DNA of 56,960 nt, the filler included, from Sphacelaria rigidula (lineage: Eukaryota): the NCBI GenBank assembly GCA_964200075.2. It is 3 parts of 3 records of this genome, joined end to end, with 100 filler letters (N's around TTAATTAATTAA, not from the genome) between each part and the next. Parts side by side here need not be neighbours in the genome. Positions count along the whole stretch, not along the records: positions 1 to 18,928 come from CAXNAA020000763.1; 2 more parts are not named here. The stretch is one strand, 5' to 3'. Below are positions 2,481 to 54,980 of this stretch, piece by piece. The notes under the pieces were generated by a model. The model saw only the letters and a list, made by a program, of their open reading frames with translations. It was not told the origin of the DNA and ran no database searches. The first letter of the stretch is position 1; the number at the start of each line of letters is the position of its first letter. The position numbers and the translations under genes are program-made.

Positions 2481-2729
2481 AAGATTAATGTCGATTTCTT
2501 GTTTCGGTTTTCCAACTGAAAATGGGTGAGAGCTGGGGACAAAAACAGCAAGGGCCGTCCCGTTTTTAGCCACAAGTCCCATTCCTTCACTCAGAAAACG
2601 CGAAAACAAATCTTGGGGAGAGATCACGTCAAATCCAGCTATCAGGGCTTCATCCTTGAACACACTCAAGTCTGGGCAGTGGAGCCCTTGGACTGCACGG
2701 AGAGAACCAACACCATTCGTGGGGGCAGG

Positions 2730-3128
2730 TGCAACGTTTGCCTGTGAAACGGACTGTACGCGAACACTTGAATTCACCACGTTCGCCGGAGGAACGGACT
2801 GGAATCGAATGCTTGGGGGAGGGGAAGTAACAACGCTTGCAGATAAAGCGGACTGTACACCAACACTTGAATTCACAACGGTCACCGGAGGAACGGACTG
2901 GAATCGAATGCTTGGGGGAGGGGAAGTAACAACGCTTGCGGGTGAAGTGGACTAGACGCCAACACTTGAATTCACCACGTTCGCCAGAGGAACGGACTGG
3001 AATCGAACGCTTGGGGGAGGGGAAGTAACAACGCTTGCGGGTGAAGCGGACTGGACGCCAACACTTGAATTCACAACGGTCGCCGGAGGAACGGACTGGA
3101 ATCGAACGCTTGGGGGAGGGGAAGTAAA
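2730..3128. repeat. 99-bp (33-codon) tandem repeat, about 4 copies, inside Copia pol between protease and integrase
   Basis: GAGGAACGGACTGGAATCGAA recurs at about 2789, 2888, 2987 and 3086, i.e. every 99 bp. Confidence 0.95.
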
Positions 3129-4602
3129 CACCTACAGCTAACACGGCAAGGGGGGGATTTTGGTATGTTGACGGTAATCGAATGGCCCTCTGTGATGAAG
3201 ACCGCTCATTGCGATCGAAGCGAAGCCGACCGTCAAACATGTGTGCTCCTGTTTCAGTCAAAAGTACATCCTGCTTCTTCTGCACTTGGTGCAGAGGAAA
3301 AAGGTTGAAATGTATACCTTCAAGAACGTAAACATCAGCCAGCTGCACGTAAAATTCTGAGGACGCACCGACGGATTTCGGGGCGGTGGAATTTCCCATG
3401 TGAAATTTGAGCTTCAAACTCCCTACTGCTCTGATAGGGAGAATTTTTCCGTTCCCCACGATTACGTGTTCATTTCCTTTCGGGGGGGGGGGGTAAATCA
3501 AACATACCAACCATTGAACCAATGGTATGGCGTGAAGCACCATTATCAGCTATCTACTCCTCTGTACCATCATCCACATCAAACCCTGACCCACTCTGGT
3601 TAAGCAAAGTAACCCCCAAAGTAAAATCACCCAACTCAAAACGTGTGACTCGCCTTGTGACACAGTGTGTGCCATGCACAGGTGAAGCGGCGCAGAGGAT
3701 GAAGCTGAACCGGAGGNNNNNNGGATAATCAGGTTGGGCATGATGAGGTTGTTGCTGCTGGTGTAGTTGGTGAGGGTATTGCAGTCGAAGTTCACCTTGC
3801 TGCGGTGATGACTGGATCTGGTTGTTGGTGGCAGCTGCGGAGGATTGCGGGGGATTGCGGGGAAACTGGATACAGTGCGCGTAACATGCACCGCTGAAGC
3901 CGCTGTTTTCTTCCAACACCCACCCGTCTTCTTCCGTCCCGTTCCAGTGTTGTTCGATGTGACTACTCTCTTCGTAACCCCCTTGGTCACCGCAAAGTTG
4001 CACGGTGTTGACCGATCCGTGGGAATGGGTCCAGGGGGGGGGGGGTTGGTGTCCTCCGTGACGAGGTTGATTCTGGGTAGGATTCACATGACGCACCCCC
4101 GAATCGACTTGCGGCCCCACTACTCTACGCCATGGGCAAAACGTATGCATGTGGCCCAGTTCGTCGCATGTGATGCATCGCTTACGTGGGGTCGGCGTGG
4201 TGAATTGGGGGCTCGTTGCCTCCGGGGTGGTATAAACCATCAGGATAACGTGAGTAGTCATACCCACCTTGCGGCGGGTCATAATGCGGTAGCTGGCTGC
4301 CTGGGTGAGCATTGCCGCCGCCCCGCCCCGAAGCACCGTACCTGTGACCAAATCCACGCCCTGCGCCCCGTCCTCCACATCTCGCTTGCTGCTGCTGCTG
4401 CTGCTGGGGTTGCCAGCGTTGTTGCTGCTGTCATTGTTGCTGAGTGAGCAGCTGCGGTGATTGGGTGTGCATTCTACCGCGTCCGCTACTCCCATGACCT
4501 CCAAAAGTGTCTGCACTATGGTATTGCTGCTGGCGAACACCATTCCACGCACCCCCATCACCGCGACTTTCTTGTGCATGCATGTATCGTTGTCCGTTGC
4601 AT

Positions 4603-7105: not shown

Positions 7106-8485
7106 ATTATTGTTGGAGGATTGTGGTTACTGCTTGCCCGCCAGGCGTACACGGGCACTCGTATTGTTGCGCCTGCACAGGGAGAAGGAAACTTGCGAAA
7201 AGATCGCGACGCTACCGGCACTTTGAAATGGCTATGGCCGTTCAACACTCAGTCGTCTGCGCCTTTGTCCAACCGTATGTTTCAAGCGAAACTCTGTCCA
7301 AATACTGTAACGGTCAGTTTACACTTTCACCTGCCCGAAGCATGCTTCATACTTCAAACCTCCGTGTGGTGCTCATAAGCAATACTTCCAGGAAAAGGCA
7401 AAACAGCAATACTGTGAAGTTGAGGGGCTGCGGCCCTTAGTTATCAGAGTTGCGGAACTGTTGATCAAGCACCTCCGTGTCACCAGCACCACCCAACCCC
7501 TCCCCTCCCCAGCAACCGCCTATAGTCGACAAATACGACTCTATTCGGAAAATGACTACGAAGCCAAGGGTTCGACTCCCACGACTCAGCGCCGTAGTCT
7601 TGGACGATGATCACGAAAGCAAGCACCTCGCTCTTCGGGTTTGCAAACCACCCCAAGCACACTCTACTGTAGACGCTATTATTGTGGCTCAACAGCCTAC
7701 ATTAGCTTGTTTTGTTAAGATGTCACAGATTACACTGAGGTGAACAATAAACGCTAACTGCTCAGCTCGGTGGTATCTGTGAGATCTTAATTTGAATTAC
7801 TGTCCACGGTGCGTCTCACCCTTCCATCGTTCAAGGTGAAGGCGTGTGACGGTCATGTAACGGAACATATGGCTCGAGTATCATTGACTTCGTGCTTCAA
7901 CGGGAGAGTCGCCTCAACTGTTGCTCTTGATTATTCTGCCGAACGGATTGTGATGTCATTTCTATAGGGTGCTTTACCTACAACTATCAAATACGCGTTC
8001 GGATCAATCACAGCGAACATATAACAATCATTTCAAACTGGAAATCCGCACGTATATACGTGCTGCCTTGATGTGAACGCGGGTCAAACAATATAAAAAC
8101 ATATCAAGCACGCGTAAGTTTCCAGCTGGCTCTGGCACGAGATGTCATCAAAGTTCTTACATATCCCTCATTCAGGTTTCACAACTCTTCCCGTCTTCGC
8201 ATCATCTCGGGAGCCGATACTGTCGATGCATGCTTCTTCGGCTTTGCTAGATCTCCTGTGTTGCTGCATGCAGCCAGCGCGCCTCGGCGCTGGTTTAACT
8301 GCTTTAGTACCAGTAATGGCCAGTTGGGGCGGAAGGTTGCGTATTCGAATCCCCACAGTACAGTCCCGTTCGGCAGAATTTTGTTGCTGTCGAAAAAAAC
8401 GGGAGGACACGAGTGGCACAGAGCACTCGGTGAGAGTCGAGGCGTGAGGAAGTGCTAATAATCCGATACTCGTAACAAATTGTCA

Positions 8486-8590
8486 GCCAGGTACCGGGGG
8501 GGGGGGGCGTACTCATTTGTTGCTTGCCTTAGTCATTTGACCATTGACCACGCATCCCTTTCGAGACGGAGCATGCCAGGTACCGGGGGG
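8486..8590 (-). mobile_element. 66-bp 3'-terminal LINE-derived retrocopy with poly(C) tail and 16-bp TSD
   Basis: GCCAGGTACCGGGGGG at 8486-8501 and 8575-8590 flanks body 8508-8573, which is identical to the reverse complement of 37337-37402. Confidence 0.92.
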
Positions 8591-10507
8591 AGATGGATTG
8601 ATCACTTGAGCCTACAGACCTGTCCCGAAGGTGAGGGGGCCAACGGACGAAACCAAAGCCGTTGCGCGTCCCTACCCTCCGAAAAAACAACAGGGTGGTG
8701 CCCATAGCGCGCAAGCAAGAGGATCAAGCAATACACGCTTGGGGTATGGACAAACTGACATAGGCAGCGCATTTTTTCTCGAATCCGCGGGTTATCATCT
8801 CACTGGTTAACCCTTGGCCACAAAGTTGTCGCTCTGAGTCCAGGTAAATCAATGTATATGGCTCATGCCTTGAATATTGGATCTCCTTATCTCTGCATCT
8901 CACTGATCTTACAAAACCCCCTCATACTCTTCGTGGTCGAAGGAAGGAAGCGTCACGCCTCAAATTGCATAATGGAGCGCAGTACATGCACAGAACTGCG
9001 CGCGGACAATGGATTTGGCACCATGTTACAGTCAGAATGCAGTCCAATACTGGTATCTGCCCTGATACGCTGGCCGTCACCTCCACCCCAGGAATATTGT
9101 CGCACCATACCTACCTAGCACCACATTTCCAGCCGAAATCTCGGTTTCAGACGCTACCTGGGAAGTTAGCGGACCATCCCCGTCCGTGGGCGGGTGTCCT
9201 CATCATTAGGCAGCGGAACGTCAAGTCCCGGATTGCTCCTGAAAACTTTTGGTTTACTCCCAACGTAAATACTACACACCTTTGCTTTATTTGGTTGTTT
9301 TTTGAACACCTACGGCATGTGTCAGTTGGTGAAACGCTGTTTGTTTCACAGCATCGCCACTTGCCATCACCGAACCACATTGGTACCCAAAGGGTACTTT
9401 ACATGCCAACATCAAGCGACCACACTGGGGTTCTGCACACTGATGGAAAGAGAAGAATACTTACACGAACAAGGTCAAAATCATTACAAATTGACATTCT
9501 ACCCTGCTCGCTCGTGCTGAGACAGCGAAAAAAATACTCTTCAGTCTCCAATTTCTTCATCACCAAAAATAATGGATCCTCCTCGATCCATCGACTATAC
9601 ATCCTTTTCAACATTCAACGCAGACCATGTGTAACACTCTTCAAGAGTGTACACAGGTAACAGCAGTTGAGGCACGTTCCAGGGCACAAGTCAGAAACAC
9701 AACCACACCATGCTGGTCGGTGTTCCCAAGCTCGTTTCGATGGGGGGAGGGGACGGCGGTTGACTTGACCAAAAATGGAGTGAACAAATACAAGAAGATT
9801 ATGATGTAGGTACGTCTCGACACTGCTCGCTGGGCCCAGTCTAATCTTGAGCAACTCGACCTCTCGGATGCAAACTACACCCTCTGCAACAATTGGGTAG
9901 TTCAGCGAGTTGTGGCTAATCCATCTTGAAGGCAATCTTACTACCCGGCGGACATACCACCATCCAACATGCGGTTATCCACGTACATTAACACGACGGA
10001 GGTAAGTATCCCAAAACGCTTTCATCGGCAAAGATAACACACACACAAATGTCAGAGACTACGCGAAATTCGCAGATGGAGAAAACCACGAACAGTACGT
10101 GCACAACGAACGGCAATAAATGCAAGGACGATCGGTACGACAAACGAATGGCTGCCAACCACCTACCGAACACTACACGTAATATCGCACCGCGGAGTGT
10201 GCACCCACGAAATCCACAGAGAACGCGGTGCCAACAAACTTCCTCACGGCGTAACACACTATTTGCGCTCGGCATATAACAAACAACCGGCAATTTCTGA
10301 CGTACGGCCCACACAACTCCTGATGTGATCTAAGCCTCCCGATAACTCAGACTTGCAGAGCAGTCCGGTGAGAGTGTTAGTACCGTACCAAGGACCTCAT
10401 CTTACCCAACAGACTGAACTGAACGCTCTTCAAACTGTACGCTTGGAATCGGGCGTTGACGCTTTACGCAGACTCGCTACGTAACATAGCTTCACTGCTT
10501 CGCTGAA

Positions 10508-18392: not shown

Positions 18393-18660
18393 AGGGATGT
18401 GTGACACGTGAACGTGAACGTGACGTGAATCACGTTCGTAAAATTCAACGTAACGTGACACGTGACGCGTGTCACGTTTGGAACATTCAACGTTACGTGA
18501 ACGTGCCATCTAGAAATTTAACGTAACGTGAACGTGACGTTAATCACGTTGAAGAAATTTAACGTGACGTTCCGTTACATGTAATGTGTAACGTGACATT
18601 GTCACGTGTCACGTATTATGTAACGTGGCATTGACACGTGTCACGCTCGCATGTAACGTT
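18393..18660. repeat. ACGTGA/ACGTAA/CACGT-rich degenerate array, possibly the subterminal region of a DNA transposon
   Basis: Dense ACGT-core words in both orientations, starting at AGGGATG; (AATC)n follows at about 18735-18760. Confidence 0.65.
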
Positions 18661-18928: not shown

Positions 18929-19028
18929 NNNNNNNNNNNNNNNNNNNNNNNNNNNNNNNNNNNNNNNNNNNNTTAATTAATTAANNNNNNNNNNNNNNNN
19001 NNNNNNNNNNNNNNNNNNNNNNNNNNNN
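18929..19028. other. Artificial scaffold linker (N44-TTAATTAATTAA-N44)
   Basis: 100-bp spacer with stops in all six frames; identical structure at 37950-38049. Confidence 0.97.
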
Positions 19029-21348: not shown

Positions 21349-22262
21349 ATGTGCGTTATAACTTACTTGCAGTATTGTAGAGCATTTCGTAGGAGGAGGT
21401 GTGCGAGAGAGACACGGCTGCATCTATTGAACACTATAGCAGGTTCCACCATGTAGGTGAGCCTGTTGCCTGGAAACGCTCCTGGTGCAATACAGCAGTA
21501 TGCTAACGGTCATCGTATATTTTTTCAGAGTATATCTATTCTCTCTGATACAAAGGGGCTCTGAACCAGCCAGGGAAAGCATTGGCTCGGTCTTTCTTAG
21601 ATATGACGAGAAAAAATTACACCGTTTGTGTCGCGCCCAGGGGAAGTCGTGAAGGGACGGATGGTTTTCGAGGGAACCAATCGTCCATTGTACGGGTATA
21701 AACCGTTCACATCCTGGACACTATATGGTCAATAGACGCAATAGACGAGAAGTGTACTGCGTAAAGTATGGGCCTATTGCAACTATTGCCAGCCGACAAT
21801 GGTCGCAATAGGCCCATACTTTGTGCAGTACGTTTCTTGTCTATTGCAACTATTGACCATATTATATTGTCCAAGGTGTGAAACCGTTCAAGCAAGGATA
21901 TTTCGATTCTGAACAGGGAAAGATGTACTGCAGTACCCCTGAATACTATTCTACATGTTTCATTTCCAGCCATATTCTTCAAAAGACGTTGTAATCGTTT
22001 CTCATCATATCTAAGGAAGAGCGAGGCAATGCTTTCCCTGGCTGGTCTAGAGCCCCTTTGTACGAGAGAGAATAAGTATACTTTGAAAAACGATACGACA
22101 GCCGTCAGCATACTGTTGTATTGCATCGGGAGCGTTTCCAGGCAACAGGCTCACCTACCTGGTGGAACCTGCTACAGTGTGCAATAGATGGAGCCGTGTC
22201 TCTCCCGCACACCTCCTCCTACGAAATGCTCAACACTTCTGCAAGTAAGCTATAATGTACAT
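21349..22262. repeat. Long inverted repeat / foldback (arms about 21349-21630 and 21985-22262, weaker similarity further inward)
   Basis: For example GAGCATTTCGTAGGAGGAGGTGTGCG (about 21380) is the reverse complement of CGCACACCTCCTCCTACGAAATGCTC (about 22206). The arms align without visible indels. Confidence 0.9.
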
Positions 22263-25200
22263 GGGGATTATACCGTGCGGGTCTAGAAGATTGGTGCCTG
22301 GTAGGGCACTCCTGATAATGAGATGTTGTAAAGGCTGACAGCGGAAACTGAGGCTAGTTAGACTGGGGAGTCCCTCAACAGCAATGATCCACCAGTTCTT
22401 CTTCTGGCTGGCGTTACAACATCGATATTAGTGTTCGTGCTAGAACTAGTACCTAGCAGAACCTGCTGGAAGGATTTCGGCGGAGGAGTCTAGCAGCTGA
22501 CAAGCTGGAGTATCACGGACGCGTGAAAGGGGTTCAAGCTGATGGTAGCTGCTGAAAGGCGCCTGATCTGTGATTGATCCAGACTGGAAACTTGCAAAAG
22601 CTGCGTGCAGCGGGAGTTCGGAGGCTCCCATGACTGTGTGGTGCGGCGACGAAGCAAGGAAGTGTGCAATTCGCGAAGGTCTGTTGGCCTGCGAAAGGTT
22701 CGCAGGTAGCCGACTGTAGCTATGGCAACCGGCTCGCGTAGTACGTCCAGCGTGAAACCCGTGGTTATGCGGGAAGAGTTGCGACCTCCCCAATACTGGA
22801 ATAGGTACTTCGAAAGTGCATCTCGCACCTTCTATACGAAGTACGCGGAGTACAGAAATCGTGTGGAGCACGCTAACGCAGGAGATGCAGTGCGACATCA
22901 GTTAGTGTCGATGACTCAACAGGTGCCGACGCATGTGCAAAGAGTGTTTGCGCGTGTGAAACATGATCAGAGCACAGTAATCCCGCCGCAATTGATTGAG
23001 GCGATCAAAAGCATGCCCGGCATGCGGCGGGCACTTGCCACTGTTGTGGCCAGGTCGGCCATTACGCGCGCGATTGCCCAACGTTTTCCGGTGGAGAGTC
23101 TGGGCAGCCTTATGCCGCGTGTCATCAGCATCGTCAGCATAAGGGCAAAGGAAGAGGTAATCAGGGTGGTGGCGGCGGCAGATCCTCCGGTGGTGGAGGG
23201 TCGCAGTGGAGCTCTCTGCAGCAGCAGCAGCAGCAGCAGCAGAATCAGCAGCAAGGTTAGCGACGTCAGCATGGGTCTGGCTCTGGGTCCGGCGCCGCCG
23301 TAGGTGCTGCTGCTCCGCAACGGGCGGTGCAGGTGGGACTGGCTTCTGTAGTGTCGAACACTGCGCCGGCGCCGCACCGGTGGCGACACCGGCAGCAGCG
23401 CCAGGCGCGACGCCTGCTGAAGCGCTGGTCGGAGTTCCGCCAAATTCGTGGTCTCCTGGCTGGGGGTCGTACCCGGCAGCGGTCAGTTTGAATCTGCCGG
23501 GACGTCTTCGCCCGCGCAGCTTGCGCAGCCGTAGTTTCAAGTGGGATTAGCGGCGAATCGGTCGGCGAATATAGCGCCCGTGGAGTTTGCCGACAAATAC
23601 TTTCCTGCGAAGCTCTGTCTTTCAAATCAACGGGAACGTGGAGTCATTGAGGTTCGGGCTGTGTGGAATTCTGGCGCCCACTTCACGGGTCATGTGAGTC
23701 TGTCGGTACAGATTATAGAGGTGTTGGAGCGTCTTCTCCCTGGTGTGCCGCTGTGCATTCCGTTTTCGCTCGGGGCGCGGCAGGCCGTCACCGCGTCGGG
23801 TCAGCATGTTTACGTCACAGAGCGTACTGTTTCGCTGCAGTTGACTTTCACGACTTCCTGGGGGCTGGCGCCGTTGCTTGCGATCTCGTTTGCGATCATG
23901 CCGGGATCGGATGGCGTCGATCTTCTGGGGGTTGTCGACGCTGTAGGATCTTGGAGTCGACCCGTATGCGCGGTTGTGGGTCTCCATGAAGACGCGGATG
24001 TCTCCGCCTGGTCCGCGCATGGAGAGGCCCGCCTTTTTGGGTAGGCGTCGCGTGAGCTTGTCGGTGAATGCTTTCCAGGAGGCTGGGAGGCAGGTGACCG
24101 AGGAGCGGGATGAGGCGGTGAAACGCTTAGTGGAGCGCGACCCGGGGATGTTCATGGATCCGGCGGAAGAGGAGTCCGCTCGGACTATCGCGCTTGAGGA
24201 GAACGTGACGGATGCTGTGGCGAAAGGTCTCAGCGTTTTCAAAGCGGAGCGCCTGAGCTGCATATTGCACCGCCGCGTCAACGCGTTTCGTCGTGCGCGG
24301 TGATCCCCCTGCGCGCGTGGGAGCCCATGCGTGCTCAGCTTAAACCTGGGGCGCCCTCGGTGGAGATGAAGCCGCGGCGGTATGATCCGGTGAAGTCGAG
24401 TTGGTTGGCGTCATGCATGGTGGCTCTATTGGCGCTCGGGTTGGTGTTACGGAACTTGAAGGCGGGGTGGTCCAGTCCGGATATGGCGGTTCCGAAGAAG
24501 GCTGCATCGTGGACGGAGGGCAGGCTGCCGGCGTGGGCAATAGCGAGGGATCTGGTGGCTCACACCGTGACGCTGTTTTATCCTCGTCCTGATTGTCAGG
24601 TGCTGAGGTTTCCGGACGCATCTGGATGTCATTGGGGTAGTCTTTTCACGCAGGTGCCTGCAGTTGAAATTCAAAGGCGCTTGCCGGTTGAGGATATGGC
24701 GCATGAACCGCTGGATTTCCTCAGTGGTAAGTTCAAGGGTCCGCAGTTGCGTCGGGTCACGATTAACAAGGAAAGTTTTGCTATCGTGAGCAATTTTCGT
24801 GCCGTTTGGATCATCGTTTGTCGGATGACGTGTAATTTTTCACGGATCACCGATATCTCATGTATATTTTCAACCCGAAAGCGTGCGTTACGTCTGTGTC
24901 GAAGGCACTGGCACAGCGTTAGGAGGGTTGGAAAGCTGTTCTTGGCCAGTTTCGTTACTCGATTTGCCATATTGTGGGTGACCGCGACGCGTGGGGTGAC
25001 TTGCTTTCGCGTTGGCTGAATATTCCGGCTATGCCTGTGCGCGCTGTGGCTGTGTATGGTCCGTGTGAACCTGAGGACTCGATGCCGTCCAAATCTGTTG
25101 TCCGCGAAGCGCAACGAAAAGACCTCGTGGCCGAAGATGCGGATGTGCAATCTTTCGAGTCGAACATTGGTACTGCTATCTTGGACAGTGAAGGCCTGTT

Positions 25201-26711: not shown

Positions 26712-26980
26712 TGTGAAGAAAGTACGCCGTTACATCGAGTTGGTGGTGATGATATGTGTAATGACCGGGGGCATGGGGAGTCTGGGAGGACTCTTGGAGG
26801 ATTCTGGATAATGACCGTGGACACGAGGATGATACCCTGCGGGCCTAGAAGATTGGTGCCTGGTAGGGCACTCCTGATGATGAGATGTTGTAACGGCTGA
26901 CAACTGAAACTGAGGCCAGTAAGACTGGAGAGTCCCTCAACAGCAGTGATCCACCAGTTCTTCTTCTGGCTGGCGTCACA
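26712..26980 (+). repeat. 3' LTR (269 bp)
   Basis: TG...CA termini; the 3' half matches 22263-22418. Confidence 0.88.
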
Positions 26981-27689
26981 ATACATACTACAAAGGCACG
27001 AAAATGACGGGGGGTGGCTGTATAAGCTGGTTTGTTTGCTGCCTCGTCTGCGGATTGTAAATATAGAAAACGAGTCGTAAGCACGCTGCACGATGCAGCG
27101 ATACAGCCCACTCCGAAACCAGTTCCCAACACTGCCACGAAGGCGTGATAGCTGGTTCAGACTGGATGAAGCACCTCTCAAGGGCGCTTGTGGCGAAACA
27201 ACCCCAAGGGTGGGAGTTTCCACCGTCTCGTTGTGTGTGTGTCCAGCTTTGTTTTTGTCCGTTTCACCCAACTGACTGTATTTCCCCCCGGGGCTGCCAG
27301 GAGCTTAGTAGGCGTAGTACCCCGCTGCTACATTTTCCCTGCTCTTCACTTCGAAAATATGCATGTTCGTAAACGGTCAGCACCGTACTTGCGTCAGCGG
27401 CAGTTGCGCGACGGGGACATCGCCCTGTTACGCGTTCTGTAGCGCGTAAAGGCACGTCCTGTTCAAAACATATCGCACCCTGACGATGTTTTTTCTTTTG
27501 AACTGCTCGTCATACTTGGGCTGCCGTACATAAACTTCTGGGTTAGGGTTACATTGCCGAAACTGCTTGCGTATCTCGAGCCTTTTGGACGAAATAAATG
27601 AAATTTCGAGGACGAATTCAACCTCTTCCAAATGATGAACCTCAAATTCGACTCCACGCTGTTTACCGGTAGCTGTTAACAAGTACTCA

Positions 27690-37319: not shown

Positions 37320-37425
37320 CCCCCCCTGTACCCATCTGCTCCGTCTCGAAAGGGATGCGTGGTCAATGGTCAAATGACTAAGGCAAGCAACAAATGAGTA
37401 CGCCCCCCCCCCCCTGTACCCATCT
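37320..37425 (+). mobile_element. 66-bp LINE-derived retrocopy with poly(C) tail and 17-18 bp TSD
   Basis: CCCCCCCTGTACCCATC(T) on both sides of body 37337-37402; C-run 37403-37414. Confidence 0.92.
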
Positions 37426-42160: not shown

Positions 42161-43389
42161 AAAAACTGGTGTAAGCAGTGACAAGAAGATAGCGAGTGGC
42201 GGACTCTGAGCCTGCAGGCTGTACCAATGGTCGAATATCGACATGGCGGAACGGTCTGTTCCGGAAGAGCAATCTATCCTACAATGATACGTAATGGTCC
42301 TGTATGAGGAGATGTTTGCAACCAAATATGCCACTACTGCAATGACAGTTCCTCAACATCGTTACGTACGACGCGGCCAGTGGTGACCTCGTTGTGACTA
42401 ACCAATCACCGAAGTATAAACCATCCGTTGCGTCGCATCACACGTGACCCTTCATATAAACGAGATCGGTCGCGTGTGTGAAGGATTCACAGAAAATGTA
42501 GGCCAAGTGTTCCGAGACTTGAGGATCAGAAACGTTGGAACACTCATGGCGTTTCCGACATAGACGCGAAAACCAAAACCAAAATAAATACAAAACCAGG
42601 GGTACGCTTGGCAACAGCGAAAACGAAATATCAGAAACATGAAGCAGAAACATAACACGTGGCGACCGTTCTTGTAAACGGGAGCGGTTATCGTGAGTAC
42701 AAAGCAAGTAGGGTCAAGTGTTTCAGCCAAGAAGGTCGAAGCGTTTCGGACTCCGCTTCGGTTACTATGGCCCATGGTAACATAAAAGCCAACGTGAAAC
42801 ACACAAAAAAAACACGTCACGACCGATCCTCAAGAGGGAGGTGGGAGTCGTGTGCGTAGCGATTGGACAAGAGCGCAAATATTGCAGACGGGGGGTCAGG
42901 TATGTCTGGCGCTCGCCCCGAAAACTCTCGACCAACACAACAAAAAGAAAACAGCCTAATAATCCAACAAGACGAAGGTGCGTGCAACGAAGGAAGTAAA
43001 GAGAACAACTCGTGTTGACCGTTCCAGTACACGGATTGATCGTGAGTGCACGGCGCGGACGACGGCGGTTCAACGTGTTCCAGACTCGGGGTCAGGAATG
43101 TTTGTGGAACGGCCGTCACGGAATACGTTGATATTTGAACCGAGAAGTATATAGATCAAATACGAAACACACAAAAACAAGAGAAAGCAAAACAAAACAA
43201 AACGACAGAAAAACGAAAACAAAACACAAACAGAAGGCCCAAAGCCAAACATAAATACAAAATGCAAAATACAACCACTAGAGGAACGGGGGCTACAACC
43301 GTACGGAGGAAAAACAAAACACTGAAGGGGGGGGGGGGACACATGGTTGTCCAACGACGCTACGGCGCAAGACCAGCCATTCGAACATG

Positions 43390-54631: not shown

Positions 54632-54980
54632 GGGGGAGGGGGGGGGGGGCGTAATCATTTGTCACTTGCCTTCGCCATTTGACCATTAACCACGTATCCC
54701 TTTTGAGACGGAGCACGGTTCCTAATCCTAATAGAGACACCTCTAACACCCAGGTGTTTGTTACGTTTCTTGCATACATTACACATGCATATTTCTCATA
54801 TCTTATCCCCCGTCTTGTTTCGCCGTCTGTGGCCACCGTTTATCTCCTAGTATAGCCATCGTTTGCTTCCTACTGTCTAGTGCATCAAAGAATTCCATAC
54901 CACCTTCGTTCCCGTTACCTAATCCCCCCTCTAGCACGTCCCGTTCCTCCTTGTATAGTTGACATTCCGCCACTGTTATG
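54632..54980 (-). mobile_element. 3' fragment of a non-LTR retrotransposon (LINE) ending in poly(C)
   Basis: Minus-strand translation ..VAECQLYKEERDVLE..AILGDKRWPQTAKQDG then (frameshift) ..GVSIRIRNRAPSQKGYVVNGQMAKASDK*. It resembles the region at and after a LINE ORF2 C-terminal zinc finger. The last 66 bp (54650-54715) differ from the short copies at 8 positions and are followed by a C-run. Confidence 0.75.

Follow-up and report, generated by a model that had tools for sequence, protein, structure and literature searches.

How does a body of only 66 nucleotides that ends in a run of cytosines come to lie between two direct repeats, with a second run of cytosines standing directly outside one of them? 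This question is raised by positions 8486-8590 of a 56,960-nt stretch of Sphacelaria rigidula DNA, which was analysed as a whole and which we call the window. The preliminary description interpreted the locus as a retroposon with a poly(C) tail that had been inserted at a C-run, making it a G/C counterpart of L1 target-primed reverse transcription (TPRT). On the minus strand the layout reads as it had been given, with C6, a target-site duplication (TSD), a single A, the 66-nt body, C12 and the second TSD copy following one another. The same layout with another TSD is present on the plus strand at 37320-37424, where it reads C7, TGTACCCATC, 66 nt, C12 and TGTACCCATC. We propose, at a probability of roughly 0.8, that both loci are recent copies of an autonomous APE-type LINE with an oligo(C) tail, truncated at the 5' end to an extreme degree, and that they were inserted by a mechanism primed through this C tail. 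Coordinates of the copies and of their parts are collected in Table 1.

Table 1. Positions of the LINE copies, their parts and related features (window coordinates unless a contig is named).
Feature	Position	Strand	Remarks
C6 run of the target, copy 1	8585-8590	-	Adjoins the 5' side of the upstream TSD copy; also present in the empty allele
Upstream TSD copy GGTACCTGGC, copy 1	8575-8584	-	10 bp
Single extra A at the 5' junction, copy 1	8574	-	L003 reads G there
66-nt body, copy 1	8508-8573	-	100% identical to L003 and L006
C12 tail, copy 1	8496-8507	-	Spanned gap-free by X3 record 18
Downstream TSD copy GGTACCTGGC, copy 1	8486-8495	-	Missing along with the insert in X4 record 25
C7 run, target of copy 2	37320-37326	+	
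Upstream TSD copy TGTACCCATC, copy 2	37327-37336	+	10 bp
66-nt body, copy 2	37337-37402	+	Same as copy 1
C12 tail, copy 2	37403-37414	+	
Downstream TSD copy TGTACCCATC, copy 2	37415-37424	+	
Copy 3, older 5'-truncated copy of the same LINE	54632-54974	-	~337 nt; 78% identity to L003; reading frame disrupted
Tail of copy 3, C12	54638-54649	-	
Tail of copy 3, T + C5	54632-54637	-	Follows the C12
C/G runs of 12	3482-3493, 4034-4045, 8496-8507, 37403-37414, 43327-43338, 54638-54649		
3' box/hairpin region, L003	108-178	-	
3' box/hairpin region, L008	8164-8228		
3' box/hairpin region, L009	3066-3136		

A 26-mer taken from the body matches the window three times at up to 3 mismatches (0 matches expected from 100 shuffles), and searches of the window with the full element by tblastn and blastn returned three copies and no others. 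For the third and older copy a TSD was looked for and none was found. There are 39 runs of six or more C or G in the window, and simple arithmetic from this number gives a chance of ~3e-4 that a run adjoins a given oriented site and of ~1e-7 that runs adjoin both sites. The C-run that had been proposed as the target is present at both copies with a recognisable TSD (2/2) as well as in one empty site described below, and both target runs are preceded by a T. The two TSDs have GTACC in common at their positions 2-6 (8576-8580 and 37328-37332) and are otherwise unrelated, which may reflect a target preference beyond the C-run (n=2). The TSD of copy 1 may extend over the C6 at 8585-8590 and so measure 16 bp. 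Six C/G runs in the window are at least 10 nt long and every one of them is exactly 12 long; three of these six stand without a LINE end, and this we count against our explanation. The uniform length could be due to an assembly length limit, to tail-only insertions or to chance.

Contigs from four public runs were aligned to window positions 8000-9200. These runs are designated X1, X3, X4 (labelled 'algae metagenome') and X10 (a different organism label). Both junctions of copy 1 are bridged in two samples that have the same organism label, by records 1 and 8 of X1 and by records 18 and 24 of X3. In X4 record 25, a contig of 4500 nt, position 8485 joins 8575 directly, and the contig is without exactly 89 nt that correspond to the A, the body, C12 and one TSD copy. 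The C6 run, GGTACCTGGC and the downstream flank are all gap-free in this record, with 0 listed differences within 8575-8590. X4 record 25 is the empty site of copy 1, C-run included, and copy 1 is a true and recent insertion. An empty orthologous site had been named in advance as a check, and here it consists of C6 followed by a single copy of the TSD. Set against our explanation is the small number of such cases, as the TSD is readable in two copies and the empty site in one.

A pattern scan of public genome contigs located the 66-nt unit in L003, a contig of 5259 nt that is binned in a bacterial MAG and ends in this unit. L003 has an open frame of 1382 aa with its TGA 5 nt ahead of a C13 run; its last 66 nt plus C13 are the window unit, and the 66-mer corresponds to the last 20 codons, the TGA and GTACG of this LINE ORF. 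Residues 763-1012 match the reverse transcriptase family RVT_1 (PF00078, 6.7e-32), with a FADD motif in the translation, and N-terminal to the RT residues 193-415 match Exo_endo_phos (PF03372, 8.1e-11). The ORF also matches Exo_endo_phos_2 (PF14529, 1.4e-07), and a C-terminal CCHC motif of the form C-x-C-x8-H-x4-C can be read from the translation. No second frame of at least 80 aa was found on the ORF strand of L003. The full-length element whose reconstruction and endonuclease type had been set as a further check is thus provided by the L003 ORF, which is of the APE type by its match to PF03372. The retroposon interpretation stands insofar as the unit is the 3' end of an intact LINE ORF with APE and RT domains, but the 66 nt are an end-fragment of this LINE and not a whole element. 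As for the window itself, none of its ten largest ORFs (0/10) has a Pfam family, and the longest is of low complexity.

The metagenome contig L006, which encodes a protein 95% identical to that of L003, has the same 66 nt at its end followed by C8. A C tail, as originally described, is therefore found at 5/5 3' ends of the family, namely C12, C12, C12(+TC5), C13 and C8 in copies 1-3, L003 and L006, a count that leaves out L007 and L016 where the 3' end is missing. Copy lengths of 66, 66, ~337 and >4100 nt represent variable 5' truncation. The C-terminal peptide is kept in LINE relatives at 89% and 74% identity and 'VVNG' near the C-terminus is kept in relatives at 33-37% identity, which indicates that the 66-mer is native LINE sequence and no captured satellite. 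The named proteins nearest to the L003 ORF come from Ectocarpus sp., where they are entered as unnamed products (55%, 48% and, over part of the protein, 71%); together with the 'algae metagenome' label of X4 they suggest a brown alga or a relative as the probable host. The MAG that contains L003 has one copy of the LINE end, and the pattern scan of public genome contigs and of viral contigs added no further 3' ends. Likewise, no LINE relatives were found in viral contigs by a protein-profile scan, and the 78-mer unit is absent from four other genomes that carry LINE relatives. Two candidates in bacterial or viral contigs, L001 and L002, were rejected as chance matches to the 20-mer pattern, their likeness being limited to 20 nt. 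A search for the TSD of L003 gave only a 7-nt match, compatible with chance, and the 5' end of L003 is undefined.

Ahead of the endonuclease, L003 encodes a conserved domain of ~100 aa (3812-4186, minus strand; ORF residues ~25-150) with the consensus LVFGV...EFK...GL...REG.H.R..L...GWRCV. No Pfam family was found for this N-terminal domain; inspection by eye suggests a likeness to an RRM, as though the protein had acquired an ORF1-type RNA-binding module by fusion. At ~4190 of L003 (minus strand) a Val codon (GTG) stands where the relative at 89% identity, P0001, has its first Met, and no ATG lies further upstream in this frame as far back as the stop before it, leaving the true ORF start uncertain.

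Being short, flanked by 10-bp direct repeats and fixed at its 5' end, the unit might also be taken for a DNA transposon or MITE that targets C-runs. We consider the probability of this to be close to nil. The unit consists of the 3'-terminal coding part of a LINE ORF, one of its ends is a homopolymer of variable length, and longer 5'-extended copies exist (copy 3, L003 and loose contig ends). Furthermore, the ends TGCTCCG... and ...GTACG-Cn are not complementary, and no inverted-repeat pair was reported within the unit.

A profile scan of public genome contigs yielded 62 loci, many of them in a 'Nitrospirales' MAG whose contigs reach megabase length. The LINEs of this MAG form a sister family whose protein has 35-48% aa identity to that of the C-tailed LINE. 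The contigs concerned, CBDBCZ01... (L008-L059), reach 2.7 Mb, hold many LINE copies and are labelled Nitrospirales bacterium; megabase contigs with many LINE copies imply that this MAG is mislabelled or contaminated by a eukaryote. Intact eukaryotic LINEs occur in public MAGs labelled Nitrospirales bacterium, 'uncultured bacterium' (L003 included) and others.

The C-tailed LINE and its sister family have a 13-nt box, GCGTGGTCAATGG, that is identical between them at the DNA level and that encodes C-V-V-N-G at the very C-terminus. Just after this box is a 4-bp hairpin, GGNN[4 nt]NNCU, which covaries between the families (UC:GA, CG:CG, CA:UG). Of all cells in the alignment 90.9% are paired, compared with 27-54% when the partners are slid, and 0/500 shuffles gave a value as high. 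Five cells are compensatory, and the covariation set of 11 sequences, 4 pairs and three families gives modest support. The box and hairpin together are probably the RT-binding site, located inside coding sequence, and with a conserved 3' box and hairpin in the coding end recognition is probably sequence-specific. Neither the unit nor the last 231 nt folded better than shuffles (z -0.08 and -0.39, respectively). Rfam gave 0 matches at gathering score in the window and nothing other than noise at E>4 for the L003 3' end; as there is no Rfam family, no ribozyme explains the fixed 5' end.

What separates the two families is the tail. In the sister family 1-4 ATT units follow GAGTAT in 14/17 ends (three being duplicates of one locus), and in L008 the (ATT)n tail runs directly into another truncated 3' end. 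Four sister TSDs of 12-18 bp start with ATT, ATA, AAT and ATA. Of these, which are all at least 12 nt long, the TSDs of L010, L014 and L043 were obtained by script and that of L034 by eye, as the script's chain had broken at an internal gap. The other 13 of the 17 chained sister copies have TSD matches of at most 6 nt, and no chain was obtained for six more candidate matches (one per strand scanned). That tail and TSD start change together between the families supports, at the level of sequence comparison, tail-to-target pairing in TPRT. The pairing of a nicked G-rich primer with the C tail, which had been inferred for copy 1 from its layout, gains support from the sister tails and TSDs.

We propose that insertion takes place as follows. 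The LINE protein would bind the 3' box and hairpin of its own RNA in a stringent-type recognition and would nick the bottom strand opposite the 5' boundary of the C-run in the top strand. With T|C6-7 at both targets, the nick would fall at 5'-G6-7^A-3' of the bottom strand. The G-run 3' end exposed by it could then pair with the C tail and prime cDNA synthesis, and a cut in the top strand 10 bp past the run would give a TSD made up of the C-run plus 10 bp. The C-run is part of the DNA of full-length L003 and L006, so any read-through transcript contains the run.

The length of the right-hand run, C12 as compared with targets of C6 and C7, fits a pairing that is flush with the RNA 3' end. It fits equally well a nick on the 3' side of the run, a plain 10-bp TSD and a tail in which all 12 C come from the RNA. 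Under such a scheme the element would be the same LINE, with the endonuclease alone picking the C/G run and no pairing taking place. Right-hand runs of exactly 12 whether the target has 6 or 7 C, TSDs of exactly 10 bp each when the run is excluded and the GTACC common to the TSDs at positions 2-6 all agree with targeting by the endonuclease. We nevertheless consider this unlikely, because the sister TSD starts shift with the tail, being ATT-like for (ATT)n, and pairing accounts for this more simply than parallel changes of the endonuclease would; the arrays formed at tails, described below, also fit pairing.

It could further be supposed that the C-run is made at integration, with the RT adding untemplated G to the nicked bottom strand before it copies ...GAGUACG. 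Some LINE RTs add untemplated nucleotides at initiation, and the range of tail lengths from 8 to 13 would agree with such a process. However, untemplated addition offers no reason for a C-run at the target, as observed at 2/2 sites and in the empty site. The full-length L003 and L006 have the run in their own DNA, and the (ATT)n found in the corresponding position of the sister family looks templated. This origin of the tail is in our view very improbable, and we favour a C tail that would be carried by the RNA and pair with the target.

Almost all of the contigs aligned from the four runs fall on the unit. X1 has 67,517 aligned contigs with a summed word depth of 15-19 million on the unit and a flank depth of 67.8, X3 has 24,081 contigs (2.5-3.5 million; flank ~14.6), X4 has 49,871 contigs (7.7-10.5 million; flank 28.1) and X10 has 9,288 contigs (0.6-1.1 million; no flank). 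The resulting unit/flank depth ratios of 1.7-3.7e5 express summed depth and not copy number. In X10, the second organism label, the unit alone is covered, with depth in 4/30 bins. Most contigs that aligned to the unit are 90-95% alike. Many copies directly follow the C tail of another copy, and the 2/2 copies that bear a TSD adjoin a C6-7 run. Exact head-to-tail joints from 8573 to 8496 (back 78) are present in 62, 13, 41 and 3 contigs of X1, X3, X4 and X10, respectively, and additional contigs have joints with shorter C-runs (periods of 72 and 71). At some array joints there are spacers of 1-36 nt or 5 additional nt of LINE sequence.

Some of the loose ends upstream of the unit continue into LINE sequence. 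The consensus of the upstream loose ends is G-rich on the plus strand from about letter 12 in X1 and X4, the place expected for a C-run 10 nt upstream. This population-level signal is a low-agreement consensus (0.42-0.44), which we count against our explanation. At position 8535 (plus strand) the majority base is G in the source organism and A in the window copies, L003 and L006, corresponding to CG versus TG on the element strand; the second organism label has an A majority. The difference so points to subfamilies, or to CpG decay of the LINE-linked lineage.

Under our mechanism an inserted C tail would itself be a new target, so that tandem arrays could arise; by an alternative route, the RT could switch from one template to the C tail of a second. 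The arrays may stem from nested insertion at earlier tails, from such template jumping or from unequal crossing-over. Two features of the arrays weigh against our explanation. The spacer is absent at most array joints, which a 10-bp offset does not explain, and T8573 is the start of most units, which is not predicted by random 5' truncation. A different account would make most of the ~1e5 units a satellite that arose by unequal crossing-over or rolling-circle amplification from one truncated founder, with retroposition responsible only for the dispersed copies. The many exact 78-, 72- and 71-nt head-to-tail joints without spacer and the uniform 5' end are what such a satellite would show. In addition, the majority variant of the source organism differs from the LINE end (e.g. 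at 8535) and most contigs are only 90-95% alike. On the other hand, dispersed solo copies with TSDs are identical to the LINE end and polymorphic, and the joints that have spacers of 1-36 nt or 5 extra LINE nt are as in nested insertion. We find a satellite origin for most units doubtful; it complements insertion by C-tail priming and does not exclude it. Tentatively, and at somewhat under even odds, the body plus C-run can be viewed as a minimal, head-less, LINE-dependent retroposon that has reached ~1e5 depth-equivalents in at least two organism labels, each tail of which would be a new G-tract priming site in self-built, satellite-like arrays.

Among known elements the parent belongs with the APE-type LINEs, as it has a LINE-type RT, an N-terminal APE-type endonuclease, 5' truncation, a 3' tail and variable TSDs. 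An L1-type poly(A) tail is not among its features, since 5/5 ends have oligo(C) and no A-run follows the body. When the RT was compared with PDB entries by phmmer, human L1 ORF2p scored 2.1e-21 to 8.3e-21 and an R2 protein scored alike at 8.3e-21, so the comparison carries no clade signal. The zf-RVT domain appeared below cut-off and in relatives only. There is also no SINE head, as ARAGORN found 0 genes in the window, Rfam found 0 matches there at gathering score and the 66 nt are LINE coding sequence.

As in L1 and Alu insertions, an APE-type endonuclease lies ahead of the RT, the TSD opens with the same homopolymer as the tail, copies are often truncated at the 5' end and the 5' junction has an extra base. 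Unlike those insertions, the tail is C where theirs is A and begins 5 nt after the stop, with no poly(A) signal noticed by eye. The conserved 3' box and hairpin inside the coding end, and the single ORF of the LINE, are further differences from L1/Alu. The comparison with L1 made in the preliminary description is thus correct as to the start of the TSD, which matches the tail, but a stringent-type LINE, having a 3' box, a hairpin and a short-repeat tail, is the closer analogue.

In the accessible portions of two papers, stringent-type LINEs are represented by UnaL2 with (TGTAA)n, ZfL2, the I factor with (TAA)n and the green-algal RandI with (ATT)n and RTEX with (CA)n (PMC3747384; PMC4176376). 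These elements end in a conserved 3' stem-loop and, after it, a tail of short tandem repeats; the same end is found on non-autonomous copies, and the tail repeats are thought to act in priming or slippage, according to the same portions (PMC3747384; PMC4176376). The C-tailed LINE resembles them in its 3' stem-loop and short-repeat tail, and the (ATT)n of the sister family is as in RandI. It differs in having a one-letter repeat unit, C, and a recognition element located within the coding sequence; furthermore, in place of a tRNA-headed SINE as in stringent-type LINE/SINE pairs, the partner here is a head-less 66-nt piece. Within the accessible part of Table 3 of PMC3747384 the tails are (A)n, (TTG)n, (CATA)n, (CA)n, (CAA)n, (TAA)n, (ATT)n, (CCAT)n and others, with no (C)n among them.

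A second point of comparison is provided by APE LINEs that target microsatellites, which in the accessible text of PMC3812793 include Waldo (ACAY)n, Mino (AC)n, Kibi (TC)n, Koshi (TTC)n and Dong (TAA)n. The targets given there do not include (C)n (PMC3812793, same portion). The likeness to Waldo, Mino, Kibi, Koshi and Dong is that these elements, too, insert at a simple repeat corresponding to the one at their own 3' end. The target here, in contrast to theirs, is a short C6-7 run and no long microsatellite, and 10 further unique bp are duplicated. Zepp of Chlorella, a LINE of the L1 clade, inserts into copies of itself, head to tail at earlier tails. The available part of PMC3747384 places Zepp among the (A)n-tailed green-algal L1 families. 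Accumulation of copies head to tail at earlier tails is common to Zepp and the arrays described here; the Zepp tail is poly(A), whereas the units here are 66-78 nt long and present at ~1e5 depth-equivalents.

As for clade, the accessible sections of PMC4438587 and PMC4455052 describe the Ambal clade as confined to protists, and Ambal is a candidate by host range alone. No C-tailed LINE was found in the accessible literature on poly-C in combination with retrotransposons or TPRT, and an entry in a TE library is possible. Internal poly-C tracts have been reported in L1 3'UTRs in the accessible part of this literature, and those L1s still end in poly(A). A brown-algal genome preprint had no whole-word match to the TE terms searched for, and a sex-chromosome paper contained nothing relevant. 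A stringent-type APE LINE with a single-C tail repeat and insertions that start at C-runs would be an unusual form of a well-known mechanism.

To our knowledge, work on tail-to-target pairing in TPRT has dealt almost exclusively with poly(A) and T-rich primers, or else with repeats of telomeric or microsatellite type. Two sister LINE families that have one 3' box in common, (C)n versus (ATT)n tails and TSD starts in step with these tails amount to a natural experiment on tail-set landing, and the C-tail/ATT-tail pair would be easily assayed by swaps of tail and target. If the self-built arrays are true, they would constitute a direct route from TPRT to satellite DNA with G:C instead of T:A priming. 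G12/C12 tracts every 78 bp at ~1e5 times the single-copy summed depth would make up a substantial part of these algal genomes that has so far gone unnoticed, with potential effects on replication, on G-quadruplex or i-motif formation and on the quality of assemblies. Standard SINE/LINE callers are not suited to a unit this short, of which the tail takes up so much.

The window has several other repeats. A 99-nt tandem repeat of about four units lies at 2722-3117 (three overlapping 198-nt windows spaced 99 nt apart, 86-89% alike), and the long frames in which it lies code for a peptide that is likewise repeated. At 18411-18570, near the N runs at 18929-19028, repeats of ~46 nt that are rich in ACGT and in part palindromic form a cluster. 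N runs of 44 nt are found at 18929-72, 18985-19028, 37950-93 and 38006-49, in two pairs whose members are 12 nt apart; these are filler between the parts from which the window was joined. Finally, inverted arms of 277 nt that are 88% complementary lie at 21349-21625 and 21986-22262, and direct repeats of 164 nt lie 4.5 kb apart at 22256-22419 and 26818-26981. The inverted arms and direct repeats suggest that the window may hold further mobile elements.
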